Below are positions 1 to 48,932 of a stretch of DNA of 48,932 bases, in pieces; within the stretch, counting starts at the first letter, position 1; every line of letters starts with the position of its first letter. A program made the position numbers and the translations under genes. This DNA comes from a virus: IMG/VR virus record IMGVR_UViG_3300048858_000013, positions 1 through 48,932 of that record, one strand, 5' to 3'. The notes below the pieces were generated by a model. It ran no database searches. It saw nothing but the letters and a program-made list of their open reading frames with translations, and was not told where the DNA came from.

Positions 1-127
1 GTGTACCCGCAAGCTCGCCATCCTTCAGGACTCCAGTCAGCTGATCCCGCGTGTGAGCGGCGTTGAAATCATACGAGTCATTAACGACCGCATACTTCAA
101 AACCACGTCCGCAGGCTTTGCGCCGAG
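1..127. repeat. Left copy of exact 127-bp terminal direct repeat (identical to 48806-48932)
   Basis: Read directly: gtgtacccgcaagctcgcc...caggctttgcgccgag is present at both ends of the window. This is typical of a circular contig written with an assembler overlap, or of terminal redundancy. Confidence 0.95.
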
Positions 128-171
128 CGCCCACGCCATCAGCTGCGCAGTCACCCCACTATAGAACTGAC

Positions 172-522
172 TCATTTCTCACGGCTCCTGCTGGCTCGGG
201 GCGGGAGATAACCCTTGTCCATAGCCCAGGCTTCGATCGACTGCTCCCAGAGTCGACGGTCAATATCCTCATCACCCCGCTTCTGCAACTCCGCGCCCTG
301 CCCCTGAATCGAGGAGAGCGCGGCTGTTGTCTGAGTCTGAATCCCGCCTAGATAATAGACGAGAGTCACGACGGGGATGAGGATGGCAAAAAGATTCAGG
401 AGGACGCCCGCCACGACCCAGTACTTGACTCGAGTCTCGGCGTGCAAAATCCGCCTATCAATGTCATGACTCAGCTCGGGGAATAACTCCCAGAGGTTGG
501 TCGGTGGTGGGTTCTGACTCAT
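172..522 (-). CDS. Small membrane protein, 116 aa, one hydrophobic helix (YWVVAGVLLNLFAILIPVVTLVYYLGGI); function unknown (lysis or virion associated)
   Basis: ORF in the leftward structural operon. Its start overlaps the stop of the upstream gene by 4 nt (ATGA-type coupling). It has a single clear TM-like segment. Confidence 0.7.
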   Translation of the reverse strand: MSQNPPPTNLWELFPELSHDIDRRILHAETRVKYWVVAGVLLNLFAILIPVVTLVYYLGGIQTQTTAALSSIQGQGAELQKRGDEDIDRRLWEQSIEAWAMDKGYLPPRASRSREK

Positions 523-1211
523 GTTACCCCTACGAGTTCCGCCTGTTCTGTGGAGATGATGCCCTTGCGCTGCTGCATCCAGAGGCTGTAACTGACTCGT
601 TGACGCGCATCATCGCTGAGTCGTTTGTAGATCTTGGCGCGGAGTCCTTCTTCGAGAACCGTATTCCAGCCCATCAAGAGCCAGTTCGTCACCATGATCC
701 GGGCGGTCATACGAGTCGTCTCGTCGATATCGAACGCTGGCAAGTAACTCCAGCCCAAATCCACATCGTAACTCGCAGGCCGTTCAGCCACTTCGTAATA
801 CTTATGCGCTCGGCAGAACTCGTAGTAGGCGATTAGGATGCGCCCGCCGACTCCACCATAACCCTTGAACACGAGCCGGTCGCCCGCGTGCTGAAACACG
901 TACTGCTCCGAGTCAAAACGCTTGCCGGGATTCAACATCTTGGCGTACACGCCGCCGACGGAATCATACCGAACTGCGCCAACCCCCTGAAAGACTCCAG
1001 GGTTAGGAACGTCCCACGAGGCGCCGGTGTCCACAGTCGGAATCACCAGCGCCTCGCGGTAAGCAGACCGCATGAAGACCACCGTGTTGCGCTCAGGCTC
1101 GAAAAAGCACTCACGAATCGACTGGTTTGCATACCGAATCACTTCGGCCTTCAAATCCGGGCGACGCGTTTCGAGCAAGATCGAGTCAACAAGCTGCGAG
1201 AAGGTGGTCAT
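519..1211 (-). CDS. Virion structural protein, 230 aa (head-completion/adaptor candidate by position)
   Basis: Ordinary globular composition, co-oriented and tightly packed two genes downstream of the capsid gene. The function is inferred from gene order only. Confidence 0.75.
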   Translation of the reverse strand: MTTFSQLVDSILLETRRPDLKAEVIRYANQSIRECFFEPERNTVVFMRSAYREALVIPTVDTGASWDVPNPGVFQGVGAVRYDSVGGVYAKMLNPGKRFDSEQYVFQHAGDRLVFKGYGGVGGRILIAYYEFCRAHKYYEVAERPASYDVDLGWSYLPAFDIDETTRMTARIMVTNWLLMGWNTVLEEGLRAKIYKRLSDDARQRVSYSLWMQQRKGIISTEQAELVGVT

Positions 1212-1223
1212 CTGCGAGTCCTA

Positions 1224-1994
1224 TTAGATCGACGAACCGACGGTCTTGGTCGGGCCGTTGCCTGCGTTGTCGATGCCCTGGATCATGCGATTCTGATCGA
1301 GGAATTGCTTGGCCAGTTTGTTCGCGGCGCCGGTGTCGATCTTCTTGACTCCGTTCTTCACGAACGCGGGCTGCTTGTCGAGGAGTTCGTCGAACTCGGC
1401 AACGTCGTCACCCTTCAGAGTCAGCGTCGAATTCTCGAACTGGAATCGGCCCAGCTTGAGGGTTTTCGTCGGATGGCTCGTGTAGCTCGTGCCCTGGTCC
1501 GAGTCGCCTTCGGCCGTTGCGCGCGCCAGCATCTCGCCGAGGCCCAACATCGTATTGCCGCCGGCGTCGAACGAACCCGAGTTATCGTCCTGCCGCTTCA
1601 TCTGCGCTTCGAGTCCAGCATCAGCCGTCTCAGCCGCGCGCTCCTGCGAAACCTCGCTCAGCGTCTGTTGACGGGTAGCCGAGTCGCTAGCGCCCGCGGA
1701 CAGCTGCGCATTGCGGCCGGTCGCGGAAGCATCGAGATTGTCGCCGACCTGATACTGAGTCAGAGGATCGAGATCGGTCGTGGTCGCCGAATCGACCTGG
1801 CTCGCGCTCGTCGTGTTGGTCGTGTCCAGCGGCTTGTCGCCCGTATCCGGAGTCGGACCCTTCTCCGGTTCACCCGAGATATCGGTCGAGGTATCGCTCG
1901 TGGGCTTGCCGGCCGTGGGATCGAGTCCGGGGCCTGCTTCTCCGCTCTTGTTCGAATCCGATGCATTCTTGCCGGTGAGATTGCCTAGTTTCAT
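1224..1994 (-). CDS. Hypothetical virion-associated protein, 256 aa, with a disordered D/T/S/G-rich N-terminal half
   Basis: ORF directly downstream of the capsid gene on the same strand. Low-complexity N-terminal half, globular C-terminal ~90 aa. Decoration or head-associated role is only a guess. Confidence 0.7.
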   Translation of the reverse strand: MKLGNLTGKNASDSNKSGEAGPGLDPTAGKPTSDTSTDISGEPEKGPTPDTGDKPLDTTNTTSASQVDSATTTDLDPLTQYQVGDNLDASATGRNAQLSAGASDSATRQQTLSEVSQERAAETADAGLEAQMKRQDDNSGSFDAGGNTMLGLGEMLARATAEGDSDQGTSYTSHPTKTLKLGRFQFENSTLTLKGDDVAEFDELLDKQPAFVKNGVKKIDTGAANKLAKQFLDQNRMIQGIDNAGNGPTKTVGSSI

Positions 1995-2096
1995 GAGTGC
2001 ACTCCTTTCCTTTACTGACGCCAGCAGCTCTCCTGGAGTCAGAAAAAGGGGGGAAGCCCGAAGACCTCCCCCTGAGTGGTTCGTACCGACTACGAA

Positions 2097-3293
2097 TCAG
2101 GCAGCGAAGTCCGACTTGACGGCGCGATTCACGTTCTGCAGGTAGCCCATGATGGACGCTGCGCCGACCTCGATGCCGAGTTCGGTGGTGATCACGCCTT
2201 CGTCGGCGTCGAGTGCATTGGTGCGCGAACCGTTGGAGTCGTAGTTCTCCTCGAAGGTTTCGCGAAGAACGCGCTTGCGGATGGCGCCGGGGTGCAGGAC
2301 CATCAGGTTCTTCGACCACGTCGGGTTCTCGTTGAAGAGCGGATGAGTCATCAGCTTCAGCGTACCGAACGGAGTCACGATCGTCCAGACCGAAATGCCC
2401 AGCTTGGACTCGCCCTGGGTGATCTGGTAGTTGCCGTCCGCCATCGTCATATCGTTGAGGACCTGCACGACCTGATCGCCGCCAAGTGCGATTCGCTCGT
2501 TGGGCATGCCCTTGACGTTGTGCTTGAACACGCGCCGGATGAAGTCGCCGAAGTCACGCTGCGAGTAGTTGCCGGCGACTCCGTCAGTGTTGGCAGCTTC
2601 GACGATACCGCCGTACTGCTTCAGCTGACTCAGAACACCGTCCGTCATGCGGAACGGCTGATTGTTCAGGGTGCCGACGTGCTTGACTCCGAAGATGAGC
2701 GAACGCTCCATATCCTCGGCGTGGTACATCGCGCAGTCCTTCTTGTTCTTCGCGACCTTGTTGCCGGTGCGGAACTTGACAGCCTTCGCAGTGCCCGAAA
2801 CCGCCCACGAGTTGCGGAAGATTTGGACATAGTTGAGTCGCAGCGTGCCCTGCTGAGCGATCGGATTCGGCTTCGTCGAAGCTTCCTCGTGCGCGTTGCC
2901 GATCGACTGGACGTGCATCGTGTTGTCGATCGCGACGATGGTAGTGCCGCCGATTCCGCGCATGACGGTCAGGGTATTCCCAACGATCGACGTGACCAGC
3001 GTGACTTCGCCAGTCTCTTCGACCATGAGCACCTGACCCGGCACGTACATGGAGCCATCCGCGACTCCAATGCCAGTGCCCGTACCGCCGCCGGTGGTTG
3101 CCGTGCGGCCGGCCTGATGCGCGTCCTCGAACCAGTTGAACACAGTGTCCGACGCGGGCTCGCGACTCATACCAGCGCTGAGCGCGAGCAGGAGAGCGGT
3201 GCCGGTCGGATTGATCTGGAGAATCGCGCTCGAGAAATCGCCGACACGATCGCCGACGATGCTCGAGTTGGACATGAAAATACCCTGAATCAT
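2097..3293 (-). CDS. Major capsid protein (HK97-fold type, putative)
   Basis: 398-aa ORF immediately after the scaffold-like gene and downstream of portal. GAGG Shine-Dalgarno about 8 nt upstream of the ATG at 3293. Size and segments such as ERSLIFG and TTELGIEV resemble podovirus coat proteins. No search was run. Confidence 0.85.
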   Translation of the reverse strand: MIQGIFMSNSSIVGDRVGDFSSAILQINPTGTALLLALSAGMSREPASDTVFNWFEDAHQAGRTATTGGGTGTGIGVADGSMYVPGQVLMVEETGEVTLVTSIVGNTLTVMRGIGGTTIVAIDNTMHVQSIGNAHEEASTKPNPIAQQGTLRLNYVQIFRNSWAVSGTAKAVKFRTGNKVAKNKKDCAMYHAEDMERSLIFGVKHVGTLNNQPFRMTDGVLSQLKQYGGIVEAANTDGVAGNYSQRDFGDFIRRVFKHNVKGMPNERIALGGDQVVQVLNDMTMADGNYQITQGESKLGISVWTIVTPFGTLKLMTHPLFNENPTWSKNLMVLHPGAIRKRVLRETFEENYDSNGSRTNALDADEGVITTELGIEVGAASIMGYLQNVNRAVKSDFAA

Positions 3294-3297
3294 CGCA

Positions 3298-4074
3298 TTA
3301 CCTCATTTGAAGGAGTTCTTGTACAAGACTGCTTGGCCCGTTCGACGTGAAGTCATCCGGGTTGCTGGGCGGAGTCGAGAGCCCGAAGTCGCCAGCGCCC
3401 AGCTGACCCATTGACTTGAGCATCCCGCGAGTCATTTCGAGCGCCTTGGTGCGATCCCCCTTCGAGTGCTTCAGCGACTGCTGGAAGACACCCTGAATCA
3501 CAGGACGAACTTCCTTCTTCGCGAAGCTGGGGAACTGCTCTGCCAGCATGGACTCATCCGACTGACGAGTCGAGTTCTCGGTGATGCTGCCCTTGATGCG
3601 GCCATCCACCTGTCCCTCGAATCGCTGCAGAATCTGCGCGGTCATGATCATCGCCTGCCGCATCATCGTCTGACCGAATTGCTGCATGCGCTGATTCACG
3701 CCCTCCAGGTTGCCCTCTGCGATCTGACTCGCAGTCTCCGCGTCGAAGATGGTCGGCGGAGTGAAGTTCGTGATGGACTGCATCAGAGTCTGACCGAATT
3801 CCTCGTCGGTCGGACCTTGCGACTCGCCGGTGCCGCCGTCAGCGGGTTCCGGGTTGTTCCAGAATGACGCGGGCTCGAAACCAAGTCCATCGTTATTTTG
3901 ATTCTGGCCGTTTTGGCCGGAGTCGCCAGAATTACCGGTCCCGTTATTTTGGGGCTGGCCCGAGTCACCGCTGCCCTGATGATCTTCGCCTTCCTTGGGC
4001 AGACCGCCATGGAGTCCGCGACGCGCGCCAGTGTACAGGTAGATGCTCTTACGGCTTGCACGATTCTTACGCAT
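3298..4074 (-). CDS. Scaffolding protein (putative)
   Basis: 258-aa ORF between portal and capsid genes. G/N/Q/S-rich disordered N-terminal part followed by a helical Q/M/E-rich part, the classic position and composition for a scaffold. Confidence 0.65.
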   Translation of the reverse strand: MRKNRASRKSIYLYTGARRGLHGGLPKEGEDHQGSGDSGQPQNNGTGNSGDSGQNGQNQNNDGLGFEPASFWNNPEPADGGTGESQGPTDEEFGQTLMQSITNFTPPTIFDAETASQIAEGNLEGVNQRMQQFGQTMMRQAMIMTAQILQRFEGQVDGRIKGSITENSTRQSDESMLAEQFPSFAKKEVRPVIQGVFQQSLKHSKGDRTKALEMTRGMLKSMGQLGAGDFGLSTPPSNPDDFTSNGPSSLVQELLQMR

Positions 4075-4324
4075 TGGTACGCTCCTTCTTTAACTCGTCG
4101 CCCAGACCCTGCATGGCACGACAGACTTTGATGAACTCTTGAGTCACTCGGATTTTCTTAAGAAGTTCTGCGTCCTCCTGTTCATGGAAACCCTGTGCGA
4201 GTCTCTCGATTAGAAGCTGTTCCTGCAACGACCAAACGCCCGTCAATGATAGACTCACGAGCGCTTGGGTTGCGAGTTCCTGCTGGACCGGGTCTAGCAG
4301 TTCGAGAATGGCCCTCTCTAACAT
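4067..4324 (-). CDS. Hypothetical protein, 85 aa, helical and acidic
   Basis: Co-oriented ORF filling the gap between the portal and scaffold genes. It overlaps the scaffold start by 8 nt. Confidence 0.6.
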   Translation of the reverse strand: MLERAILELLDPVQQELATQALVSLSLTGVWSLQEQLLIERLAQGFHEQEDAELLKKIRVTQEFIKVCRAMQGLGDELKKERTNA

Positions 4325-4332
4325 GCTGAGTC

Positions 4333-6387
4333 CTAGCCGAAGATCGGGGCTGTTACGGCCGCCGGATCAGTTGCGGGTGTGATTCCCCCGGCTGCGGCCG
4401 CGAGGGCTGCTGCGGGATCGGCTGCACCGGGGGCCGCTGGCGGAGTCGGGGGCTTCGTCTTGAATTGCTCGAAGTTCGCCTCGATATCCATCATGGTCGT
4501 CCAGTGGTCGATCATCTTCATAATGTCGATCTGCTCGCCAGTCTGCGGATTCGGAGCCAGTACCTGCGGCGCCTGAATCAGAGCGAAGATTAGCTGCTGG
4601 ATCGCCTGCTGCGCCGCCGTCCGATCGAGCGCCTTGAGTCCCTGCCCGATGATGAACGGAAGGTTGGTGTCCTTCATGTCCGCCAGACTCAACTTGAAGA
4701 TTTTGCCCGAGTAATAATCGGTGATCTCTTCCTCAGTCGGCGAGTACTGGATGACGTTGTAATACATCGCTGAACGCATGGGACGGAACATGGAGTCATC
4801 GAGCAACCGAGCCGACTTCTGCTGACGACGATTTGCGCCCTGCTGAACGGCCGCGACCTGATCCGTGACTGCGCGGTCGATCGAGGCGATCTGACTCGGA
4901 AGGCTCTGCGTCGGGAAGAACTGGTTGATGATAGTCATCACCGAGTCAACATCCTGCATTGTCTGCCGAGTATCGACGTTGTTCGCCTCCTTGAAGATGC
5001 CCGTCCGAATGTCGCGGCCAATCGCCGAACTCTTCATCGGGACTCGCATGCCCACTTCGCCCGGCGCAACTGCCGAGAAGTCGAACATGGTCGGATCGTA
5101 GAACGTGGTGCCCCAGATTGACTCGCGCGAGCCCTTGATGTGGATGTTCAGAAGTGCCGAGGCAAAGTCCTGCAACGGCTCCAGCAACTCAGCCACCGAC
5201 TTCTGCGCCGCGCCCATCAGATCATCGTTGATGACTCCGAAGTAGAACGGAAGCTGGCCGTGCATGTTGTTCTGCTGCTCAGCCGAAACGATCCACTCGG
5301 CGTCCATGATCGTGAATCGCCAGAGTTCGTAACCCCTGCGCGCCGCGTTCTCGGCTGGCGGTACGAGTCCAAAGTCCACAGGGTTGAGCCAGATGTAGAT
5401 ATGAACCAACTCGTGCCCGCCAACTTCAGTCAGATCGACGTCGCTGAGTACCTGAACCCAGTTGGTCTGACCGTTATCCGTGCCATCGTTGGTCTGACTC
5501 AGTTTAGCTTCCTGCGGGGGCGCGCGATAGTACGACACCGTGCCGCCCTCGAATCCCTCGCCCTTCTTGAAGGCTTCCTGGCAGTTGTAGAACTGGCCTG
5601 CGACTGCGCGCTTCTGCACCCAGAAGTGACTCCGAACCTCAGCGAACGCCGCGAACTCGCCCTCCTTGTGCAGATCGACCAACTCGCAGGTCGGATCATA
5701 CAGGAAGTTGTACATATCGACGGACTTCATCCGATTCCCAGCCCACTTAAGTTCCTGGGTCACGTTGACCTGCTCGCCTGCACGCTCGACTCGAGGGCCT
5801 TGGTCAGACCCCCACGCCACATGCACGCCGCCGATGTTATACTTGAGTACGGAGAACAACGTGCGCAGAATCTCGCGGAAGTAACCCGAGTACAGCGCGT
5901 CGTTGTTCATCTTGGTCACGAGTCCACGCGCCTGCGGAGTCTCGTCCGGCTCGCCCGTGAAGTAGAACATGCCGCGATTCGGAGCGAACGTCTGCGCGAA
6001 GTACGTCATCATATCGTCGAGATGCACGAACTCCAGCGGGAGAACGATATCCGACATGATGGGCTTGCCAGTCCGATTCGATTCATTGCGGCGCTTCTGG
6101 TCTTCCTGACTCAGCTTCAGCCAGCCGGCGACCTTCTGGTCCGTGTGGACGTAGCGAGGCAGCTGGTTATCGCGCGGCTTCTTCCCGATCAGGAGTCGAG
6201 CCTTGAGATAGCTCAGCAGCTTCTCGTGGTTCTCCTTGTGGAAGAACGGATGAGTCCGGTGCAACCCTGAGGGGCGCGCTAGAGTCAGGTCCGGGTAGGT
6301 GAGTTGGTGATCACCTGTATTATTCGGATTATACACTGCATACCTCCATGCCGGATTGAATCGCTTGGGCCATATCATCGTCCACAC
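4333..6387 (-). CDS. Portal protein
   Basis: 684-aa ORF immediately downstream of terL and upstream of scaffold/capsid. Size, position and the A/P-rich C-terminal tail are typical of podovirus portals. The first ATG overlaps the terL 3' end by 59 nt, so the true start may be internal. Confidence 0.8.
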   Translation of the reverse strand: MWTMIWPKRFNPAWRYAVYNPNNTGDHQLTYPDLTLARPSGLHRTHPFFHKENHEKLLSYLKARLLIGKKPRDNQLPRYVHTDQKVAGWLKLSQEDQKRRNESNRTGKPIMSDIVLPLEFVHLDDMMTYFAQTFAPNRGMFYFTGEPDETPQARGLVTKMNNDALYSGYFREILRTLFSVLKYNIGGVHVAWGSDQGPRVERAGEQVNVTQELKWAGNRMKSVDMYNFLYDPTCELVDLHKEGEFAAFAEVRSHFWVQKRAVAGQFYNCQEAFKKGEGFEGGTVSYYRAPPQEAKLSQTNDGTDNGQTNWVQVLSDVDLTEVGGHELVHIYIWLNPVDFGLVPPAENAARRGYELWRFTIMDAEWIVSAEQQNNMHGQLPFYFGVINDDLMGAAQKSVAELLEPLQDFASALLNIHIKGSRESIWGTTFYDPTMFDFSAVAPGEVGMRVPMKSSAIGRDIRTGIFKEANNVDTRQTMQDVDSVMTIINQFFPTQSLPSQIASIDRAVTDQVAAVQQGANRRQQKSARLLDDSMFRPMRSAMYYNVIQYSPTEEEITDYYSGKIFKLSLADMKDTNLPFIIGQGLKALDRTAAQQAIQQLIFALIQAPQVLAPNPQTGEQIDIMKMIDHWTTMMDIEANFEQFKTKPPTPPAAPGAADPAAALAAAAGGITPATDPAAVTAPIFG

Positions 6388-7879
6388 TGCCGTCGTAGGC
6401 AGCTTGAATCAATGGCAGGAACTGGTTCATCATCGCGGGACCATAGGCGCACGAGTCAATCCTATCGTCCGGCTGATCCTTCTTCCGAAAGTCGAAATTG
6501 ATGATCTGCTCCGTCACGGCCATATCCGTATCCGGGAGCGCCCACTCCTTATTCGCCATTAGACTCACAAAGACCTTGATGCGCCCGAGCTTGGGATCGC
6601 CACGACCCGCCATGAGTGGGACGAATACGATCTTGTGATTCAACTGAAGCTGCATAGCCATCATGGTGAAGAGCGTAATCAAGACCTTCTGGGCCGCGAC
6701 CGCTTCAATCCCCCACGTGTAGCATCCCCAGTATCGAGTCAGACGCATCGCCTGATTGAACATCTCAAGCTCGTCGCAATGCCCACTCCACGTCTCAACC
6801 GTCATCGGAATCCCATTGCGCGGGAGCACGTGAACCGAGATTGCAGTCTCGTCGTTATGCGCTGCGAGTCCAAAGGCAGGGTCGATCGTGAGCCAAGCGC
6901 ACAGGATATCATCTGGAGTCGGAGGCGGTAGATAATGCAGATGCTCAGCCGTAAAGCCATTCTCACCGTGGCCCGGCATGTTCATCATTTCGCACATCCA
7001 AGTCTCAACGAGTCCGTTGTCCTTGTACTCTTGGAAGTCCTCCTGTAGCGCCTCCGTACTCCACTTACCCGGCCAAAGCGGGATCATGAGTCCAGTCATC
7101 GTGTCCTTGACGAGGCAGCCAAAGACGACCGGGTTCCAGCGTGGATTCCGCGACAGGCGAGCAAGCAGACTCGTCTTGGCCAGCATGTTGCCCAGCCAGA
7201 TAATCTTCTTGCGCCGCGCGAGCGCCTTAATGAATGGACCGAACACCCACTTATCTAGCTTCTTCTGCTGGTCTTCCGAGTCGACAACATCATTATCCTC
7301 CACATCGTCGCAAACTGCGATATCGGGACGCTGGTTATCGACGTTGATTCCGCGCATCTGCTGGCCCTGTCCGAGTCCACGGAGGATGCACCGCTTCATC
7401 TTGCCATCCGGCATCCGCAAATCGAAAATCCAGAGCCCTTCGTTCTCGCTCTGCTTCTCAATCCTGATACGCCCGTAGACTCGGATGAAGTTCGGGTTGC
7501 TCAGGAATCCAATGATGTCCCGGCAAGCGTTCTTCGCAATCGGCGCGGTGTTCGAGATGTACGCACAGAATCGGTGCTTAGTATGCAGCCAGTACCAAAC
7601 CACCACCAACTTAGCCAGAGTCGTCTTGGCATGGTCGCGCGGGACAGCGAGTAGGATACGCTCCTTCTCGTCGTCCGTCATGAGTCCCCAGATCTCCTTG
7701 TGGAACTCGGGAACCGGCATATCAAGCGAGTCAGCCAGGAAAAACTCGATGAAAAACTCGGCATCGTCCTGCATAAGCCGACGAATCAGAGCTATCTCGC
7801 CCTCTAACTCCTGAGTTTCAACTCCGGCGTCAGTTGCGTTGGCCCTCCAAGCCTGTTCGAGTTTGTCCTGAATTTCCAT
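6329..7879 (-). CDS. terL: Terminase large subunit
   Basis: 516-aa ORF with Walker A-like AVPRDHAKTT, Walker B-like DIAVCDDVED, and a C-terminal nuclease-like segment (WLTIDPAFG, IDSCAYG). It sits directly upstream of portal. Confidence 0.9.
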   Translation of the reverse strand: MEIQDKLEQAWRANATDAGVETQELEGEIALIRRLMQDDAEFFIEFFLADSLDMPVPEFHKEIWGLMTDDEKERILLAVPRDHAKTTLAKLVVVWYWLHTKHRFCAYISNTAPIAKNACRDIIGFLSNPNFIRVYGRIRIEKQSENEGLWIFDLRMPDGKMKRCILRGLGQGQQMRGINVDNQRPDIAVCDDVEDNDVVDSEDQQKKLDKWVFGPFIKALARRKKIIWLGNMLAKTSLLARLSRNPRWNPVVFGCLVKDTMTGLMIPLWPGKWSTEALQEDFQEYKDNGLVETWMCEMMNMPGHGENGFTAEHLHYLPPPTPDDILCAWLTIDPAFGLAAHNDETAISVHVLPRNGIPMTVETWSGHCDELEMFNQAMRLTRYWGCYTWGIEAVAAQKVLITLFTMMAMQLQLNHKIVFVPLMAGRGDPKLGRIKVFVSLMANKEWALPDTDMAVTEQIINFDFRKKDQPDDRIDSCAYGPAMMNQFLPLIQAAYDGSVDDDMAQAIQSGMEVCSV

Positions 7880-7884
7880 CTGAC

Positions 7885-8499
7885 TCAGAGTCCCGAGAAC
7901 ATCTTCGCGATTTTGGAGATTGTCGAGCCCAACGAGTCACCGTCAGTACCCGGCGCCTGCATGAACCCTGCAGCCGCCGCTTCTGGATCGTTTGCGAAGC
8001 TGGCGGAAGCGTTGCCCGCGGACTTGCGCTTGGACTGCTTGGCCTTTTGAGTCGCAGGGTCGAGCGTGGATTCATCGGCTGTGCCACCGAGAATGAGTCG
8101 ACCGATGATATCGCCGATGCCCCGGCCGGATTGACCCGATGGATTCCCGGGATCGCGCTTAATCCTTGGTGCTGACTCAGACATTCCGACGGTCGGGAGT
8201 GCGATGCCCGAGATATCGTCGACTCGGACGGGCCCAACAGCTTGCTGGCGCGTAATCGGATCGACGCGGTCAGGCCGCCCATTGACCACGATATCCCCGA
8301 AAGGGTTCGAGTCGGTCTGCACGGCGGGAGCCGGAATCACGTCAGCGGTTGTCGCGCCAATCACCGGCATTGACTCGGCGAGCGCTTTGTCTGGGTCGAT
8401 TGGAGTCAACAGGCTAGGTTGCAGGAATGGCGAGGAGATATCGCCGGTTCCTTGGGCCCGTATCCCTTTGACTCCGTTGTACTGGCTGAAGTCGATCAT
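7885..8499 (-). CDS. Hypothetical protein, 204 aa, P/G/A/D-rich
   Basis: Co-oriented ORF between the terS-like gene and terL. No recognisable motif. Confidence 0.65.
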   Translation of the reverse strand: MIDFSQYNGVKGIRAQGTGDISSPFLQPSLLTPIDPDKALAESMPVIGATTADVIPAPAVQTDSNPFGDIVVNGRPDRVDPITRQQAVGPVRVDDISGIALPTVGMSESAPRIKRDPGNPSGQSGRGIGDIIGRLILGGTADESTLDPATQKAKQSKRKSAGNASASFANDPEAAAAGFMQAPGTDGDSLGSTISKIAKMFSGL

Positions 8500-8552
8500 G
8501 ATATTCCAGTCCTTCTTCTGGTCGGGAATCCTGTATGGGCGTTGCCGCCGCG

Positions 8553-9272: not shown

Positions 9273-9368
9273 TTTTTTTGTCGGAACATGCGGGACTCAT
9301 ATTAAAGGTGGGGGCTGTCGGTCGAAATGGGGGGATACCCCGCCCCCCTATAGTACGAATCAAACTAC

Positions 9369-9580: not shown

Positions 9581-9600
9581 ATGTTATAACATCACATGAG

Positions 9601-9642
9601 TCGGATAAAGAAAAGGGAGGCCAGCGGTTAAGCCAGCCTCCC
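9601..9642 (-). terminator. Rho-independent terminator of the leftward early operon
   Basis: A 7-bp G/C stem (GGGAGGC 9615-9621 paired with GCCTCCC 9636-9642) lies right after the stop codon at 9652-9654. On the minus strand it is followed by TTTTCTTTAT. Confidence 0.7.
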
Positions 9643-9651
9643 CCTTGAGTC

Positions 9652-39331: not shown

Positions 39332-39343
39332 ATCCGGAGTTCC

Positions 39344-42264: not shown

Positions 42265-42270
42265 GATACC

Positions 42271-42738
42271 TCAAATATACAGGCGATACTTGAACTTACG
42301 GAGCGACTCATCAGTCGTTGGCGCGATGATAATCTCGGCAGGCATTAACCCGCTGAGCGCATACACCGGAGCCCCGACCGCATACACACCGCTCCCTACC
42401 AGTGCGAGTCGCTGCACTGGCTTGTCGAACGGGCCGGGTGCCGCTTCCCACAGAGCGAACTCTGATTCCACGTAACACTCGGTTGCGCTCGTAGCAACGA
42501 TGGGCCAGCCGTCGTCATCGCGAGTCAGCTGGATTCTCTGGTAGCCGTTGACCCCAATCGTGGGCTCGGCCATGTTGGTCATCGTCATATCGAGAGTGGG
42601 GGCTCCCGCTACGAGTCCGACGAAGAAGGTGGGTGCGACCCCTTGGAATGCCGCGCGGAGGAATACCTCTGCTCCGGCTAGGCTGACGTTGTTGGGGATT
42701 ATGAGTCCGTCAGCCCGAATAAATTCACCGCGCATCAT
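42271..42738 (-). CDS. Hypothetical tail-associated protein, about 155 aa
   Basis: I place the start at the ATGATG at 42733-42738, preceded by GAGGA. The track ORF start at 42786 would overlap the upstream gene by 62 nt. Confidence 0.65.
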   Translation of the reverse strand: MMRGEFIRADGLIIPNNVSLAGAEVFLRAAFQGVAPTFFVGLVAGAPTLDMTMTNMAEPTIGVNGYQRIQLTRDDDGWPIVATSATECYVESEFALWEAAPGPFDKPVQRLALVGSGVYAVGAPVYALSGLMPAEIIIAPTTDESLRKFKYRLYI

Positions 42739-43126
42739 GGTGGTCCTCGTTGGGCGTTGATTCGGCGATCTTTTTGAACCGCTCAAATGGGGTCAAGACG
42801 GGGTCAGGTGCGGGATCGAGAACTTGCGGAATCAAAGCCTCAGACTCCCCCGCAAGTTCCTTAATCTCTTCTTCCGCTCGACCAGTGACTTGGACTCCAA
42901 CCACCTGCTTTACCACATCAGTCGTCGTCACCCCCTTTGTGACTCGATTCTCCACATGGAGACCGATGAACTGAGCGATCTTCTGGACAGTGCCCAAAGG
43001 ACCAGTGGCATCATCAGGTATGAGTCGCGAGACGATGTTAGCTGCGGCCACGAGAACGCCCATGTAAAAGAGCGTATCCGCTTGGCTGATGCCTAGGAGT
43101 CTAGCGATGTCTGGAATGAGGTCCAC
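42725..43126 (-). CDS. Small protein with one N-terminal TM-like helix, 133 aa (holin-like candidate)
   Basis: Hydrophobic segment TLFYMGVLVAAANIVSRLI followed by a charged tail. The function is a guess. Confidence 0.6.
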   Translation of the reverse strand: MDLIPDIARLLGISQADTLFYMGVLVAAANIVSRLIPDDATGPLGTVQKIAQFIGLHVENRVTKGVTTTDVVKQVVGVQVTGRAEEEIKELAGESEALIPQVLDPAPDPVLTPFERFKKIAESTPNEDHHDAR

Positions 43127-43197
43127 AAAATCTCTCCGTCTTACCCCTCCCAGAGTAAAGATTACGGTTATGAACTACAAGGGTTATGATTCAGGGA

Positions 43198-43464
43198 TCA
43201 ATAAACCTTGCCAGCTAGAGCGTCTTGAATCACTTGGAACAAGCCGCGCTGCGGAGGCGGGGCCACGCCTTTCTTGGGCTCCTGAGTCGGACCCGCTGTC
43301 TTGCGTACGACCGTGACTTCACGCTTAGTCTGCTTTTGTTTCTCGAAGGCGAGCATCTCTGTCGCGTTCTTGAATCCAAGCTGCTTTGCCACGGCCTCCT
43401 TCTCGGCTGCTGTGTAATCCGGAGTCGGACCCAGAGCGGTAGCTAATTCTGCAAAGTTAATCAT
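43198..43464 (-). CDS. Hypothetical protein, 88 aa
   Basis: Co-oriented ORF 9 nt downstream of the fibre gene. Lys-rich. Confidence 0.6.
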   Translation of the reverse strand: MINFAELATALGPTPDYTAAEKEAVAKQLGFKNATEMLAFEKQKQTKREVTVVRKTAGPTQEPKKGVAPPPQRGLFQVIQDALAGKVY

Positions 43465-43473
43465 ACCTGACTC

Positions 43474-45942
43474 CTACAGGATCTCGAAGGCCATGATGTG
43501 GAATGGAACTGTGCGCCCGATGAATGAAGCGCCATTGCCAACACAGAAGAATCCGAACTCGTTTATGTTCGCACCACCTACGTAAGTCTCCAACGCAGTA
43601 GCTGTACCGTGGCATTGGAACCACGACTCGCCATCTGAGCTAATAAACCATGACAGTACGGTGCCAACCTTTCTGAGTCGAATCCAAATTGGCGAGGACT
43701 GCGCAATATCGCCAGAGACTTCCACGACGCTGGAGTTATACGTTCCGAGCGCCGACCAATTCATTGCGCGGATACGGGCGGTTCCGATTCCAAAGGTCGA
43801 TAACCTGCCGGTAACTGTATTCCGAACATACAGGCTAACATTCGTATAGTTCTGGAAATACATCGGAGTCGAAATGAGCATCCGAATATCCCAGTCACCT
43901 GCTGGCGCAGGACGTTTCAGAATCGCACATCTATCTGAGTTCGCCAGCGTTACCTCGGCCAGAATACCGCGACTCGTTTGCTTGGCAGTAAAGACAGTCG
44001 AAGCTGAAATCTCGGACGTGAACCCTGCGAGTACCGGAGGCGTAGGCGGCTCAGCCCAAAATGGACTCGGACCTGCATCAGCACCACCGCCACCCGCACC
44101 AACCAAAGTCGACGGCACGCGAATCAAACGATCCTCGAAGCTATTCCAGCCACCCCAACCGAAACCAGTCAGAGTCTGCCAGTCTGCGCCATTATCCGAG
44201 AAAGCAACCTGTCCCGCGATAGGCGCTTGATTCCCATTGTCGAGACTCGAACGAATGAGAATTTCTTGAACCTCAGCTGGAGTCCCGAGGTCAAAGAACA
44301 CAGACGCGGAGGGGCCTAACGCCGCCCATTTCGTACCATTGTTTCCGTCGACTAGATTCGCAGCCTCAAACCCAGCACCATAAATCGAGTTAGCGGTCGC
44401 GGTGATTCCAGTCAAATCAGGACCACCGGGTGTTGATCGCAGCTTGAGTTCGCCGATCTGCAAGTTGGCTGAGTCCATGGCAGCAACCATGCCAAGAATC
44501 GCCCAGTAACGATGAGCGCCTATTTCACCCGAGCCACCACCGCCACCACCACTCGCAACAGTACCCGGCTCATAGCGTTGACTCACACTATTCCAGACCA
44601 AAACCTGCCCATGCGCGGGTGCAGTATCTGCTACATCATTAAGCGCTACAACCGTAGTCGGATAGTGATGTACGACAACCTCATCTTGATTCGCAAGCGG
44701 ATGATTAAACGTCTGCGCAGCATCATTGGGCCAAGTAGTGCTGGTGCTCCACTCAGTGACCCATGTGACTCCATCATCGCTTCGCTGAATTTGGAACGAC
44801 GTAGGCGCCTGATAATGGTATGGCGCTGCGCGAGGCGTGATCGACACCTGACGAATTGCTCGGGGAGTCGAGAAGTTATATCCCAACCAAGAAGGCAAAC
44901 CTCCCTGAACAATCGTCATTGTATTCAAATTGTTGTCGAACGCGTTAATGGCCGCGTTGCCACTTTCATTATAGAGTCCGCTGACAACCGGCACGCCGTT
45001 TACAGCTTGCTCTGCAACACCTATTTCTTGACGAAATTGCAACTCACGAGTCGAGAAGTATTGCTCACTCCCGAAAGTAAGGCAATTAACACGCCAATAC
45101 TTAGCCGCAACGGGGCCGTTCGTTGTTGGGCCGCTTGGACCTGTGGCCGTCGGTTCAACCTCAAAAGTCGAATCACCACCGCCGCCCGAGCCACCTTCAA
45201 TTGTACCCGGTTTGAACTTCTGCTCCGAGTCATCCCAGATCATTACTTGACCGTCGGTTGGCTCTACAGTCCAATCGACGTCGTTCAGGGCTTTGTAATG
45301 AGTCGGATAGTAATTCTTAAGTTCAGGATCGTTAGGGTTCGCATGGTAAACCTGTGGCACGTCGTTGGACATACCCGAGTCAGGAATATGCCACTCAGTC
45401 GTCCACGTCAGGCCATTGTCATCTGACCAATCGACATTCAAGGCGCCCGGCGCGCCAGTGGGATATCCACCGCGGATTCGCATCATCACTTCACGAACGA
45501 GAACTGGCTGGGGGAAGTGATACCCTATGATTCCAGCGCCGCCACCAGCCGTATGCCAGAAAGTCCCGGTGTTGTTGTCGAAGGCGTTAGCTGCGACTTG
45601 ACCTTGCAACACAGAGCTAGCGAATGCGACTCCGCCGGTCGCCAATTCCGGCACACCAACAACACTGCGGAATTGAATCTCCGAAAGCATTACGGAGTCC
45701 CAGCCCTTGGTCGTAAGGCAATTTAGCCTCCACGATTTATGGGCACCTGACTCCACAAGGTATCCTGAAGGTCCGGTCGCAGTCGGTTCTACATCGCTAG
45801 ACGGCCCGCCCCCGCCACCGGCCATCGGCCCCGGCACATACATGCCAAGGAGCGCATTCCAGATCAGAACATCATTATCATCCGGTGGAGTCCCAGAGAT
45901 ATCACTGATATCAGAAAGTTTGATCTTCATGTCAGAATCCAA
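43474..45942 (-). CDS. Tail fibre / receptor-binding protein with three discoidin (F5/8 type C, CBM32-like) modules and a C-terminal ConA/LamG-like domain, 822 aa
   Basis: The protein has three modules. Each consists of a (V/L)(L/M)IW...Y/K-PG(P/T) segment, a poly-Gly linker, and a domain with the AFD(N/G)N..T.W signature (AANAFDNNTGTFW, AINAFDNNLNTM, AANLVDGNNGTKW). The C-terminus has DWDIRM ... WIRLRKVGTVLSWFISSDGESW. Confidence 0.85.
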   Translation of the reverse strand: MDSDMKIKLSDISDISGTPPDDNDVLIWNALLGMYVPGPMAGGGGGPSSDVEPTATGPSGYLVESGAHKSWRLNCLTTKGWDSVMLSEIQFRSVVGVPELATGGVAFASSVLQGQVAANAFDNNTGTFWHTAGGGAGIIGYHFPQPVLVREVMMRIRGGYPTGAPGALNVDWSDDNGLTWTTEWHIPDSGMSNDVPQVYHANPNDPELKNYYPTHYKALNDVDWTVEPTDGQVMIWDDSEQKFKPGTIEGGSGGGGDSTFEVEPTATGPSGPTTNGPVAAKYWRVNCLTFGSEQYFSTRELQFRQEIGVAEQAVNGVPVVSGLYNESGNAAINAFDNNLNTMTIVQGGLPSWLGYNFSTPRAIRQVSITPRAAPYHYQAPTSFQIQRSDDGVTWVTEWSTSTTWPNDAAQTFNHPLANQDEVVVHHYPTTVVALNDVADTAPAHGQVLVWNSVSQRYEPGTVASGGGGGGSGEIGAHRYWAILGMVAAMDSANLQIGELKLRSTPGGPDLTGITATANSIYGAGFEAANLVDGNNGTKWAALGPSASVFFDLGTPAEVQEILIRSSLDNGNQAPIAGQVAFSDNGADWQTLTGFGWGGWNSFEDRLIRVPSTLVGAGGGGADAGPSPFWAEPPTPPVLAGFTSEISASTVFTAKQTSRGILAEVTLANSDRCAILKRPAPAGDWDIRMLISTPMYFQNYTNVSLYVRNTVTGRLSTFGIGTARIRAMNWSALGTYNSSVVEVSGDIAQSSPIWIRLRKVGTVLSWFISSDGESWFQCHGTATALETYVGGANINEFGFFCVGNGASFIGRTVPFHIMAFEIL

Positions 45943-47533
45943 TGATCTCGATCAGATCGCCCGCCGCATTCGTGGTGATCGTCAGTTCCTGTTCCGTGAT
46001 GGTGTATTCCGTCGTGGGCCATTTAAGTCCATTGACGTAGACAAACACCTGAGTCACGACCAACCCACTGCTCGGAAGCAGAATCGCCTGCGGATCGCCA
46101 GTCCCCTCAGCTTGCATCGCCCACGGCTGAGGCCTTAACTGCTGGTTGGCCGACGCCAGTAGACTCTCGATGGTTTGCTCGGCAGTGGATCGCCATAGCT
46201 CCAGCGCTTTGAGTCGTTCATCATCGCGAGCCTTCGTTCGTTCCACCAAGCTCTTGAGCGAATCAATCTCTTGATAGACTCCGGTAAGATCGCCGCCTGT
46301 TCCTCCGCCACTTGCGAGTCGTCCAACGGCTTCATTGAGAGTTTCGATCTTCCGATTAAGATTGGCGTCTGTCGTGTTTCGCGACTTTGACTCGGCTTCG
46401 AGTCGCTGCTCAAACAATACTTGCTGCCGTCCGAGTGCCTCGATGGCAGCAGCGTAATCGTTATCCTCAATGGCCGCGATGGCCTTCTGGAGTTCCGCGA
46501 TCTCTGCTTCGATCGGAATCAGAAATGGTCTGACGCGCTGGTCGATATACTCGGGAGTTACGCCACCATTGAGTCCGACGCTCCAAGTTCCAGCTGGAAG
46601 AATCCAAGCCTTCTTGCCCTTCGTGGTCGGGACTGTCACGATAGCTGGAGTCGGATCGATGATGCGCGCGACTTCAGGTCCGGGCCCGACCACAAGGATC
46701 GCCGGATTCGCAGGGTCCCAAGTTAGGGATTGGTCGGCAACGATGGGGCCATCTGACTCAACCGTGATGGTAACGGGAGCGCGCCCATGCGTCATCACCC
46801 AGCCGTACTTCCCGGCCACATCTCCAGAAGCAAGGTTGAGTCCGAGAGGACGCCAGATGCTCGTGCGCTTGAGGGTTTGGCTGCCGACCCACTCAGTACC
46901 ACCACGATCCGAACCCAGCATCAGAGTCGGCTGAACGGTGTCTGCCGCATACTGAACAAACCGGCCACTGATCAGGCCCATCTGCGGGTGCACGAATCGA
47001 GTCATAGACCCGAGCGTGAACTCAGCCTTGTCGGCAGGCAGCGTCGCGACTTCCCACGGGAAGGTTGAATCGCCCGCCTGAGTCAAGTTATGCTGTTGCC
47101 TCAGGAGTTCCGCTTGCTCGCGCAGGTACTCATAAAGCTCCGGGTCTTCCGCCGCGAGCTTATTGGGTACGTCGGGGCGGTATGGATTCAACTCCAAGGA
47201 GGTCGCGCGCGCGACTGGACCCGGTCGCGTAGGCGCTTCGTAATCCAATTCGCCGATCGGCCAAATCTCTGAGTCGGAAGGCCGAACAAGAAGATCAAAC
47301 TTAAGCAGATCGCCCAACGAGCGAAGCACTTCAGCATGAATCGACGCAAACTCAGTCTGGTAAACATCATGAGTCTGATGCGTTACTTCGATATAACCCG
47401 AAGCGAATTGAAGTGGATAGAACTGAGTGGTCTGATGAGTCACCTCTGCAACATAAGTCGCAACTGCAAACGGTGCATCATCCTGCCGAGTTACTTCGGC
47501 AGCCAACCACCCAGTTCTAGTTTCATCCACCAT
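45932..47533 (-). CDS. Tail fibre / tail-associated protein with a central coiled coil, 533 aa
   Basis: Heptad-like segment AEIAELQKAIAAIED ... LEAESKSRNTTDANLNRKIETLNEAVGRL. It overlaps the downstream fibre gene by 11 nt. Confidence 0.75.
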   Translation of the reverse strand: MVDETRTGWLAAEVTRQDDAPFAVATYVAEVTHQTTQFYPLQFASGYIEVTHQTHDVYQTEFASIHAEVLRSLGDLLKFDLLVRPSDSEIWPIGELDYEAPTRPGPVARATSLELNPYRPDVPNKLAAEDPELYEYLREQAELLRQQHNLTQAGDSTFPWEVATLPADKAEFTLGSMTRFVHPQMGLISGRFVQYAADTVQPTLMLGSDRGGTEWVGSQTLKRTSIWRPLGLNLASGDVAGKYGWVMTHGRAPVTITVESDGPIVADQSLTWDPANPAILVVGPGPEVARIIDPTPAIVTVPTTKGKKAWILPAGTWSVGLNGGVTPEYIDQRVRPFLIPIEAEIAELQKAIAAIEDNDYAAAIEALGRQQVLFEQRLEAESKSRNTTDANLNRKIETLNEAVGRLASGGGTGGDLTGVYQEIDSLKSLVERTKARDDERLKALELWRSTAEQTIESLLASANQQLRPQPWAMQAEGTGDPQAILLPSSGLVVTQVFVYVNGLKWPTTEYTITEQELTITTNAAGDLIEIIGF

Positions 47534-47537
47534 CGAA

Positions 47538-48590
47538 TCACACCGTTATTTCAGGCCGCAGAATGAGATCGTTAACAGCCTCGCGAGTCCAATCGACATT
47601 GCCGTCGGGATTCTTCGAGAGTCTACGTTCATACCGGGCGAAGCCAGAACCCATGTAGATATCTGGACCCATATCGACGACCTCGCCGGACTCAAGACCT
47701 AGCGCAATCGCTCGAATCGTTGAACCGGTTTGCTGGCCAAGCATGATCAAATTGACCTCGAAAATCGTAGCCGAGTCCGAGGAAAGATTCTTGATCGTAT
47801 ACTGGTCATACTGACCCGGCGCAGTCCCGATAACGTAGTCCGCAATATTCGGAGTCACGTCGTCAATCATGGCCGCGTTGTCAGCGCCGGTCAATGGGGT
47901 GAAGTCCTGATGGGCTCCATTGCCATCAACAGGCAAGGACTCGATACGGATAGGTCCGCGACGAATCGGTTCATCCCAGATATAGATGTCGTCGATTCGC
48001 CAGTTGACTCCGCCCGCGAATTGCGGATGCACGCCCAGATCGAGATAGCGTGCAGGGCCGGGACCGTCGAATACAGTGTCGATATTCACAGCACTAATCA
48101 CAGGCTCAGGATCGCCGTTCATATAGAGTCGAACGAATCCTTCAGTCTTGTGGAGTTTGATCTCCAACTCGAAGAAGTTCCAGACGTTCGGCTGAATCAG
48201 ATACGGGGCCGACCGGCAATTTGCCTGAATGACTCGTGCGCCATTCGCGCCACCATTGAAAAAGATGCTGCCGTCCGGATCAATCATGATTCCCCATTGC
48301 CGCTGCAAATTGGCATTGAGAGTCTTGATGTATGACCCACCCATGAATCCAGTGGGCAAACCATACCAAAGGCCCGAGAATCCAACCGTGAACTCCGTGA
48401 TTTCTTCATCGAGTGGGCGGAAGCACTCGTTGGACTGCTGATTGCCCAGGAACAACGATCGGCCCAGGAATCGGCCCGGCTGCAACGAGTAATCGCCACG
48501 GTCAGTGCAAGTCCAACGACTGAAGAAACCAACCGGCGCATCACGGCCGGTATAGGTGTCAAACGATTCGCGAAAAACAAACTTTGCCAT
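47538..48590 (-). CDS. Virion/tail structural protein, 350 aa, jelly-roll (ConA-like) appearance
   Basis: Co-oriented, beta-rich ORF with a segment WNFFELEIKLHKTEGFVRLYMNGDP. The function is inferred from position. Confidence 0.7.
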   Translation of the reverse strand: MAKFVFRESFDTYTGRDAPVGFFSRWTCTDRGDYSLQPGRFLGRSLFLGNQQSNECFRPLDEEITEFTVGFSGLWYGLPTGFMGGSYIKTLNANLQRQWGIMIDPDGSIFFNGGANGARVIQANCRSAPYLIQPNVWNFFELEIKLHKTEGFVRLYMNGDPEPVISAVNIDTVFDGPGPARYLDLGVHPQFAGGVNWRIDDIYIWDEPIRRGPIRIESLPVDGNGAHQDFTPLTGADNAAMIDDVTPNIADYVIGTAPGQYDQYTIKNLSSDSATIFEVNLIMLGQQTGSTIRAIALGLESGEVVDMGPDIYMGSGFARYERRLSKNPDGNVDWTREAVNDLILRPEITV

Positions 48591-48593
48591 GAT

Positions 48594-48911
48594 TCAAATC
48601 CTGAATACCCCGTTGGGGGAGAATCGAAGAAGGAGTTCCGGCGCCGGAATGATGAATGGGAGGTCGGCAAAAGCCGTCTGATTCACAAAGGCAATCAGCT
48701 TAGAACCGCCCGTCCACGAGAAGTAGAAGACGATTGCTTGCATCACGTCACCTGGAGTCAAACCTAGCAACTGAAGCTCCCCAACTTTGACGGTCGATCC
48801 CTCCAGTGTACCCGCAAGCTCGCCATCCTTCAGGACTCCAGTCAGCTGATCCCGCGTGTGAGCGGCGTTGAAATCATACGAGTCATTAACGACCGCATAC
48901 TTCAAAACCAC
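48594..48911 (-). CDS. Hypothetical structural-module protein, 105 aa; its 5' end lies in the terminal repeat
   Basis: Its stop lies 3 nt before the start of the next gene. The start codon at 48911 corresponds to position 106 in the left repeat copy. The gene therefore follows the 172-522 gene on the circular map. Confidence 0.7.
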   Translation of the reverse strand: MVLKYAVVNDSYDFNAAHTRDQLTGVLKDGELAGTLEGSTVKVGELQLLGLTPGDVMQAIVFYFSWTGGSKLIAFVNQTAFADLPFIIPAPELLLRFSPNGVFRI

Positions 48912-48932
48912 GTCCGCAGGCTTTGCGCCGAG
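48806..48932. repeat. Right copy of exact 127-bp terminal direct repeat (identical to 1-127)
   Basis: Read directly; see the left copy. Confidence 0.95.

Follow-up and report, generated by a model that had tools for sequence, protein, structure and literature searches.

The viral genome held in IMG/VR under the record IMGVR_UViG_3300048858_000013 (positions 1 to 48,932; this whole stretch of 48,932 nucleotides is here called the window) is covered from end to end (1-48932) by a lattice of the short palindromic word GANTC. Its 847 sites lie at a mean spacing of 57.7 bp (median 56 bp), with a coefficient of variation (CV) of 0.50 and a largest gap of 153 bp. The excess of GANTC is statistically secure and reflects positive selection on the DNA word. 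An earlier inspection of the letters of this DNA, here called the original prediction, had drawn attention to the excess; the even spacing of the sites and the conservation of the lattice throughout a clade of related phages, both absent from it, are the most informative features.

Abundance of GANTC in the window

An exact count of 847 sites corresponds to 17.3/kb and to 4.58 times the expectation from base composition, and the observation as a whole is stronger than had been claimed. The window is a complete circular map of a podophage genome, assembled (Logan) from the sequencing run SRR35925186, and its ends (1-127 and 48806-48932) are identical over 127 bp, which reflects an overlap in the assembly of a genome that is circular or terminally redundant. 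Two sites are therefore counted twice, and the 48,805 unique bp hold 845. GANTC ranks first among all 256 words of the form XYNZW, the second being TCNTC at 2.01x. GAGTC and GACTC together occur 543 times against 104 expected (5.2x), GAATC and GATTC 304 times against 81 (3.8x), and these are the top two pentamer pairs; the control words GTGAC and GTCAC (38 and 39 occurrences against 51-53 expected) are not enriched. The coupling of GA with TC is limited to a gap of one base, with 847 occurrences against 229-335 at gaps of 0 and 2-7 bases. The hand counts on which the original prediction was based hold up as well: the same five stretches gave on recount 45 GASTC (S, G or C), 25 GAWTC (W, A or T) and 7 GTSAC, compared with ~46, ~25 and 7, the 9, 12 and 8 GASTC in three non-coding stretches were reproduced, and the positions quoted for individual sites and both 10-bp palindromes are all correct.

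Shuffling synonymous codons left 298 +/- 11.5 sites in the genes, where 772 are observed (2.59x, z=41), and a shuffle that keeps amino acids, codon usage and dinucleotides left 489 +/- 11.5 (1.58x, z=25). Both ratios lie above the value of ~1.5 that the original prediction had named as its limit, and the GTSAC control stands at 1.0x in both shuffles. Non-coding DNA contains 53 sites, ~4 times the 13.4 +/- 3.8 expected from a first-order Markov model. GA/TC dinucleotides and CGA/TCG trinucleotides are enriched in their own right. In the comparison of pentamer counts with a maximal-order Markov model, proposed as a further check, the exact count places the GANTC pentamer pairs at the top, and the Markov ratio is only 1.25. 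This ratio is not read as a refutation, because the model conditions on GANT and ANTC tetramers that are inflated by the sites themselves. The word occurs on either strand, in each codon phase and also outside the genes, and its excess survives codon-preserving shuffles, in agreement with the earlier claim that selection acts on the DNA word itself.

A trait of one phage lineage

Relatives were collected by searching IMG/VR with the two clade markers, the family A DNA polymerase (24421-27078, plus strand) and the large terminase (6329-7879, minus strand), and by adding contigs that carry a clade-specific gene. This yielded 52 loci on ~45 distinct uncultured contigs, which span a GC content of 46-59%. 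GANTC is the top gapped word in every profiled locus with at least 42% polymerase or at least 51% terminase identity. In 48 loci its density is 10.7-20.2/kb (median 16.1) at an observed/expected ratio of 2.7-5.2, the median spacing CV is 0.53, the median largest gap per locus is 192 bp, and density is independent of GC content between 48 and 59% (r=0.15). Codon shuffles in eight relatives gave a GANTC excess of 1.7-2.7x (z=10-27).

The outgroups differ. GANTC occurs at 1.14x in Polaromonas phage Tiera (CV 0.98), at 1.15x in EBPR podovirus 3 (CV 0.99) and at 0.46-0.83x in four contigs with at most 34% polymerase identity (L020-23). Caulobacter is the model genus for methylation by CcrM, and in the Caulobacter phage Kuura, a distant podophage of such a host, the 45 GANTC sites in 43.8 kb amount to 0.31x (CV 1.06) and to 0.46x of the codon-shuffle expectation, i.e. 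to depletion. Recounting in related phages, as the original prediction had suggested, thus returned the same density across the clade and its lack in the outgroups; since this density is held across the GC range of the clade, the trait follows the phage lineage.

Within the lineage, individual sites are not fixed. The polymerase gene contains 46 sites in the window and 36-43 in each of six aligned orthologues, mostly at differing positions, and 86 of the 152 occupied alignment columns in the seven orthologues are singletons. Density is therefore held while positions turn over. GANTC-free islands of more than 230 bp are rare in the relatives (L041, L044, L045, L049, L051, L036 and L037) and are homologous to window positions 9652-13780. 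They cluster round homologues of an acidic 303-amino-acid protein (9652-10563) and of 12968-13780, and several of those in L049 are low in GC (0.42-0.46). These islands look like recent imports that do not have the lattice as yet.

Identity of the selected word

The central base shows no bias in 4,054 sites (1.02/0.98), and all four central bases are equally enriched. The flanks are uninformative, except that A is disfavoured at position -1 (0.57x); this is the only departure, and an extended motif such as YGAKTCK, which had been suggested as a flanking-base preference, was rejected. W-centred and S-centred forms each reach 4.24x over the 48 clade loci. The special rank given earlier to GAGTC/GACTC, and with it the link to the enzymes PleI, MlyI and Nt.BstNBI, is thus not borne out: because the two forms are equal across the clade, the surplus of GAGTC/GACTC is a local feature of the window, and the selected word is GANTC. 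Its twelve one-mismatch neighbours lie at 0.6-1.5x, as in outgroups or unrelated phages, and a mutational drive of the very-short-patch-repair type was rejected on these grounds.

GANTC is a palindromic, non-polar word that lies on both strands, and not an asymmetric, orientation-biased signal of the Chi or KOPS type, as the original prediction had held. Plus-strand counts are 295 GAGTC and 248 GACTC, and 147 GAATC and 157 GATTC. On the sense strand of the window genes GACTC (295) exceeds GAGTC (191), and GAATC and GATTC are equal (144/142). This surplus of GACTC is probably an effect of codon availability (Asp-Ser, Leu CTC, Thr ACT) and not a strand signal.

Even spacing and order between sites

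Control words of similar abundance are spaced with a CV of ~0.95 (0.92-1.07) and have largest gaps of 255-1,022 bp, against 0.50 and 153 bp for GANTC. Random draws of the same number of sites from the 1,490 synonymous GANTC opportunities in the genome gave a CV of at least 1.0. The chance per bp of meeting the next site was measured on 9,939 intervals pooled from the window and its relatives. At distances of 5-20 bp it is 0.005/bp, a neutral baseline close to the codon-shuffle prediction. It rises to 0.010-0.015/bp at 21-48 bp (2-3x baseline) and to 0.026-0.039/bp at 49-60 bp (5-8x from 49 bp on), dips to 0.020/bp at 65-68 bp, and then reaches a plateau of 0.03-0.045/bp. The use of synonymous opportunities depends likewise on the nearest other site: 24% are used when it lies 5-22 bp away, 54-61% at 23-37 bp, 39% at 38-46 bp, and 94-100% at 47 bp or more. 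Only 12 opportunities genome-wide that lie at least 47 bp from both neighbours are unused.

The GANTC sites interact with each other. Their pair correlation has peaks near 24-27, 32-35, 48-54, 57-61 and 82-87 bp and troughs at 28-31, 37-46 and 63-67 bp, and the order fades by ~120 bp. The same short-range order recurs when the window is excluded and only 3,207 independent sites of its relatives are analysed. Ripples of ~27.5 and 8.5 bp dominate it, a site begins to be of benefit at 23-24 bp, and intervals of 48-62 bp form the main spacing mode. Two simple models were rejected: helical phasing, as the pair correlation has no 10.5-bp term, and a convex 'fill the largest gap' rule, which predicts that gaps of 84 bp are split mid-way, but 38-46 bp is a trough.

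Strength of selection and cost to proteins

Dipeptides of Asp or Glu followed by Ser are written GANTCN in 180 of 195 cases in the window. They are 1.5-2.2x over-represented in clade proteomes, compared with 0.6-0.9x in three outgroup phages; thus, the DNA word has reshaped the proteins. Density is unchanged at 17.5/kb in putative non-coding DNA of the clade (stretches longer than 150 bp without an open reading frame (ORF) of at least 70 amino acids), and coding limits therefore do not seem to impose the set-point of ~58 bp.

Methylation, modification and restriction-site avoidance

Indifference to the central base is the recognition pattern of CcrM- and HinfI-type enzymes, and GANTC shows it. 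GANTC methylation is known from Alphaproteobacteria (PMC9836097) and from freshwater Chloroflexi, where 88-99% of sites are methylated, and orphan GANTC methyltransferases are common in nature (PMC6329791). About half of the pelagiphages are depleted of the word (PMC9516812). The phage itself appears to have no such enzyme, in keeping with what the original prediction had noticed. No methyltransferase was found with Pfam and/or PHROGs among window genes of at least 74 amino acids, nor with Pfam in 41 accessory gene clusters, and a motif-IV scan of 1,868 ORFs of clade loci returned only non-conserved chance matches. A beta-class N6-adenine methyltransferase with a DPPY motif was accordingly not found in the window, the clade ORFs or the accessory clusters, and no GcrA-like gene was found in the phage. 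The sequence AFGNPPY encoded at 23549-24421 was rejected as a methyltransferase motif IV since it is not conserved in orthologues. This gene matches a PHROG family annotated as 'nucleotide pyrophosphohydrolase' and is missing from many clade members. Searches of window genes and accessory clusters for dCMP/dUMP hydroxymethylases, PurZ, DpdA/Que(CDE), glycosyltransferases and Mom-like families were also negative.

The genomes of CcrM hosts under-represent GANTC. In the 48 clade loci, other palindromes are strongly avoided: TTTAAA occurs at 0.05x, CCCGGG, GGATCC and GGGCCC at 0.07x, GGTACC at 0.09x, GAGCTC at 0.15x, AGGCCT at 0.16x and CCWGG at 0.31x (0.20x in the window). Against the codon-preserving expectation CCWGG stands at 0.17x and GANTC at 2.59x, the opposite of what restriction avoidance produces. 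Since many 6-bp palindromes are avoided 6- to 20-fold, the DNA of the clade is probably ordinary, exposed to common type II restriction and not globally modified. One relative carries ThyX, which implies an ordinary dTMP supply. The avoidance profile, as an imprint of the hosts' restriction enzymes, might be used to identify the host.

A possible reader of the lattice

We tentatively propose that GANTC serves as a docking lattice for a phage-encoded reader that would occupy the whole genome in stoichiometric amounts. Such a reader would bind as a symmetric dimer with a footprint of ~23 bp, it would travel with the phage lineage, and one bound unit would serve ~50-60 bp of DNA. For a coat, each copy of the genome would call for 1,000 dimers or more. 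Selection would then fill stretches beyond the reach of a unit, and extra sites inside an existing footprint would be neutral. The bound reader may coat the phage DNA in the cell, organise it or mark it, and nuclease protection, distinction of self from host DNA, and a scaffold for replication or compaction as in the case of p6 of phage phi29 are options for its purpose. Docking of a phage protein was among the hypotheses of the original prediction, and it gives the best fit to the ~23-bp zone without selection and to the preferred distances; the binding itself is what we infer from them.

Several features point in this direction. A no-benefit zone of footprint size suggests simultaneous occupancy rather than a catalytic mark, because two sites 10 bp apart can both be methylated and steric exclusion is the better account. 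The rise in the value of a site up to ~50-60 bp, together with the near absence of long gaps, would indicate a requirement for coverage and not additive capacity or local regulation. That the trait is bound to one lineage across GC content, while the few examined phages of GANTC-methylating hosts deplete the word, favours a reader encoded by the phage.

The sole candidate for this role that can be named, and a weak one, is a clade-specific basic protein of 111 amino acids (18433-18768, plus strand). The AlphaFold2 model (pLDDT 87.7, pTM 0.75) has a beta-alpha-beta-alpha-beta-beta topology of the Alba/SpoVS/IF3-C type, and the best structural neighbours are SpoVS, archaeal Alba, IF3-C, Rpp20/25 and a phage SpoVS-like protein; Foldseek gave probabilities of 0.96-1.0 for SpoVS and 0.57-0.80 for Alba. 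The protein family has only 124 representatives among 1.84 billion proteins. All clade loci that span this region carry its gene and none of the outgroups does, and the four contigs with the most divergent family members all show the lattice. These contigs belong to the clade and are syntenic with it, so that common descent confounds the association. The start of the next gene (18761-19642, plus strand) overlaps the end of the candidate gene and encodes a clade-specific protein of 293 amino acids, which is a possible partner. Its N-terminus of ~180 amino acids is rich in Ala and Pro and disordered, and its C-terminal domain is conserved and helical. The protein further has a basic patch of the KAKRA type and an acidic tail at the C-terminus (MLDDLASLGF); a fold search with it returned no match. 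A more specific scenario, which we consider speculative and rather unlikely, is a sequence-anchored 'chromatin' in which the small Alba-like protein and its disordered partner would polymerise on the lattice every 25-60 bp and thereby mark or shield the phage's own ordinary DNA, or spare it from its own nucleases; the need for this would be great enough to have altered codons and amino acids across the proteome.

A number of observations weigh against a phage-encoded docking protein. A 5-bp palindrome with 2-bp half-sites and an unbiased centre and flanks is typical of methyltransferases and restriction enzymes and not of architectural or regulatory proteins, and Alba-family proteins bind DNA without sequence preference. 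The fold match of the 111-amino-acid protein is weak (E 1e-3 to 5e-2, template-modelling score 0.30-0.51), and the protein has no Pfam or NCBIfam match at E <=0.01 and no match to an Alba or SpoVS sequence model. At least six other clade-specific genes share its perfect association with the trait. The fine structure of the doublets (24/33 and 51/60 bp) and the trough at 38-46 bp do not derive from any concrete structural model. A host reader may also be conceivable, and for the proteins of the phage named here GANTC binding is a conjecture.

Clade-conserved genes without an outgroup counterpart comprise, among others, 18433-18768, 18761-19642, 21071-21457, 22665-23159, 27095-27331, 27417-28004 and 29340-29978. 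Two of them encode a deoxynucleoside-monophosphate (dNMP)-kinase-like protein (27417-28004) and an Rv2179c-like DEDD exonuclease (29340-29978). This pair hints at nucleotide salvage from degraded host nucleic acid, which would bring with it a need to tell self from host DNA. Sequence searches against solved structures with three proteins of unrecognised family gave nothing useful, and a scan of viral contigs with an Alba-like alignment found nothing with peptide patterns that were too strict.

Alternative explanations

Methylation by the host is an unlikely but serious alternative to a docking lattice. The sites would be substrates of an orphan or restriction-modification GANTC N6-adenine methyltransferase of the CcrM/M.HinfI type, and dense N6-methyladenine (m6A) would be a self-like mark that is read or respected by host or phage. 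Any central base and no flank preference is the exact specificity of such enzymes, they are widespread in environmental bacteria (PMC9836097, PMC6329791), only the host could write the mark in a phage without a methyltransferase, and a phage that is always methylated pays no restriction cost for the word. However, a catalytic mark predicts neither the ~23-bp no-benefit zone nor the preferred distances of 24-27, 33 and 48-62 bp. The examined phages of CcrM hosts deplete the word, as seen in Kuura and in about half of the pelagiphages (PMC9516812), and the trait tracks one phage lineage across a GC content of 46-59% and is not convergent. We know of no m6A benefit that reaches 25-30 bp from the site. 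In the original prediction host methylation was listed next to an unrecognised modification; both are kept as less probable readings. The avoidance of other palindromes suggests that the DNA is not broadly modified. The proposal of transcription timing through GcrA-like readers, also made there, does not account for a uniform, genome-wide and evenly spaced array.

It is improbable that GANTC carries a bulky or unusual base modification made by a phage enzyme whose fold is unrecognised, with the lattice spacing the adducts. A steric length scale could result if a defence or repair enzyme reads a bulky adduct, about half of the genes have no recognisable family, and clade-specific nucleotide-metabolism genes flank the polymerase (the dNMP-kinase-like gene at 27417-28004 and the gene at 23549-24421). 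Against this stand the 6- to 20-fold avoidance of TTTAAA, CCCGGG, GGATCC, GGGCCC, GGTACC and GAGCTC and the ~3-fold avoidance of CCWGG, the negative searches for hydroxymethylase, PurZ, DpdA/Que, glycosyltransferase and Mom-like families, the ThyX of one relative, and the lack of a nameable candidate for the writer.

We give little credence to the idea that the genome is a sponge which titrates a host GANTC-binding protein (CcrM, GcrA or similar) off the chromosome and so arrests or reprograms the cell. With 845 sites per genome multiplied by the burst size, an infected cell would contain very many GANTC sites, and a footprint-sized exclusion zone is expected if only sites that can be occupied simultaneously count. 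The methylase sponge of the original prediction explains the exclusion zone, but not the growth of site benefit with distance: additive capacity makes sites at 25 and 60 bp equal, yet 94-100% of the synonymous opportunities are used beyond 46 bp and only 54-61% at 23-37 bp. A share of 1/850 per site also seems too weak for near-saturation and amino-acid changes, and the model does not forbid gaps, yet the median largest gap is 192 bp.

Points of enzymatic action, such as nicks, primase starts or the initiation of recombination, are a very improbable use of the sites. GAGTC is the word of known nicking enzymes, and the phage has its own primase-helicase, RecD-like helicase, PD-(D/E)XK exonuclease and Sak4-like annealing protein. 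However, the equal enrichment of all four central bases does not fit a GAGTC-specific nickase, a genome nicked at such intervals on both strands would fall into fragments, neither priming nor recombination needs a site every 58 bp or predicts saturating selection, and helicase and exonuclease are shared with outgroups that lack the trait.

That the excess has no function and follows from composition, from the usage of codons or dipeptides, or from biased mutation or repair is hardly credible: the low maximal-order Markov ratio and the enrichment of GA/TC and CGA/TCG speak for it, but the excess survives the shuffle that preserves protein, codons and dinucleotides and is 4x in non-coding DNA, it is specific for the 1-base gap with one-mismatch neighbours neither enriched nor depleted, mutational bias gives no under-dispersed spacing (CV 0.5), and the dipeptide excess is absent from outgroups.

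Genome and gene layout

The 49 genes called in the window cover 94% of the sequence and are arranged as two arms. The virion arm lies on the minus strand (29979-48932, running on into 1-10917) and encodes the large terminase, portal, major capsid protein and tail proteins, together with a virion protein of 1,797 amino acids and a protein of 1,028 amino acids with a transglycosylase domain. The replication arm lies on the plus strand (11665-29978) and encodes a RecD-like helicase, a PD-(D/E)XK exonuclease, a Sak4-like ATPase, the family A DNA polymerase, a DUF3987 primase-helicase, the dNMP-kinase-like protein and the DEDD-type exonuclease.

GANTC sites were also mapped in three non-coding stretches. 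The 747 bp between the divergent arms (10918-11664) contain 20 GANTC sites and, at 11207-11234, a short tandem repeat (gctgtgctatt gctgtgctatt). A second stretch (12526-12756) contains 6 sites, 26-58 bp apart. The third (9171-9651) contains 15 sites and four copies of a 20-21 nt direct repeat (TCGAGCGAAGCGAGTCAACAT-like; 9394-9550), three of which include GANTC. The repeats adjoin unannotated genes upstream of the large terminase, one of which would be the small terminase by position only, and could be a packaging site or origin iterons.

Judged from its sequence, the phage has no closely related cultured counterpart. A megablast search of the polymerase gene against 50,697 phage records gave no match, and the best polymerase protein matches are 22-27% identical (EBPR podovirus 3, Polaromonas phage Tiera, Pseudomonas phages 119X and PaP2, and Caulobacter phage Kuura). 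As to the host, no tRNA and no Rfam family were found in the window, and no polymerase relative was found in 185,579 species genomes. Lysin and tail-fibre matches are spread over many Proteobacteria and cyanobacteria and do not identify the host.

Comparison with known systems

CcrM/M.HinfI methylation with its reader GcrA uses the same word, including the indifference to the central base. The regulatory sites of that system lie at promoters, whereas the sites described here are uniform, genome-wide, evenly spaced and 4x enriched, and the phage was found to have neither a methyltransferase nor a GcrA-like gene. Restriction-site avoidance is likewise a DNA-level selection on short palindromes and is seen in the same genomes for 6-bp words, but its sign is opposite for GANTC, whose sites also interact in their spacing.

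DNA uptake sequences (uptake signal sequences, USS, and DNA uptake sequences, DUS, of Pasteurellaceae and Neisseriaceae) are over-represented and more evenly spaced than chance, as GANTC is, and one copy per processed segment suffices. They are 9-12 nt long, occur at ~1/kb, and arise from uptake bias and recombination in competent bacteria, whereas GANTC has four specified bases and occurs once per 58 bp in a lytic podophage. Such sequences are mentioned in PMC1939737. Chi and KOPS are also over-represented words that guide a DNA-processing machine and mark self, but they are asymmetric, strand-polar 8-mers that lie kilobases apart. SeqA on clustered GATC is similar in that a protein filament reads a short palindrome that can be methylated, in more than one copy, and in that spacing matters; it acts on hemimethylated sites at oriC and behind replication forks, and GATC is not evenly spaced genome-wide.

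An analogy in architecture may be drawn with p6 of phage phi29, a phage protein that covers a whole viral genome in a regular array, as the proposed reader would. To our knowledge, the phi29 genome has no such lattice, and p6 reads bendability and not a word, whereas a specific word would anchor the proposed reader. Dimers of p6 follow one another at intervals of 24 bp, each superhelical turn takes up 63 bp, and the protein reaches ~700,000 copies in a cell (PMC10899789). These lengths of 24 and 63 bp can be set beside the onset of benefit at 23-24 bp, the ~27-bp ripple and the main mode of 48-62 bp, which are values of site spacing only. No p6 homologue was matched among the window proteins searched in Pfam, PHROG or NCBIfam.

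Concluding remarks

Full-text literature searches returned GANTC regulation in hosts and depletion in some phages, and no enrichment or even lattice of any short word in a phage. We thus found no published precedent for a GANTC lattice in a phage; the phenomenon is conserved, and its mechanism is directly testable. Phage genomes are known for avoiding short palindromes. This clade avoids them too, yet it holds one restriction-type word at ~4x expectation, in an almost regular array in which gaps above ~150-200 bp are hardly tolerated and which is paid for in protein sequence. This implies a genome-wide, sequence-anchored phage process, such as coating, marking or scaffolding, of which we found no description.

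Should the reader be a phage protein, viral DNA would be organised, or self told from non-self, in a way that is new, and a 5-bp word with its binder would be at hand as a ready-made orthogonal pair. Should it be host methylation, this would be the first case of a phage that maximises an epigenetic mark instead of evading it. In both cases, members of this lineage can be recognised in metagenomes by their lattice, a signature that is simple to compute, and other lattices on other words might be discovered likewise.

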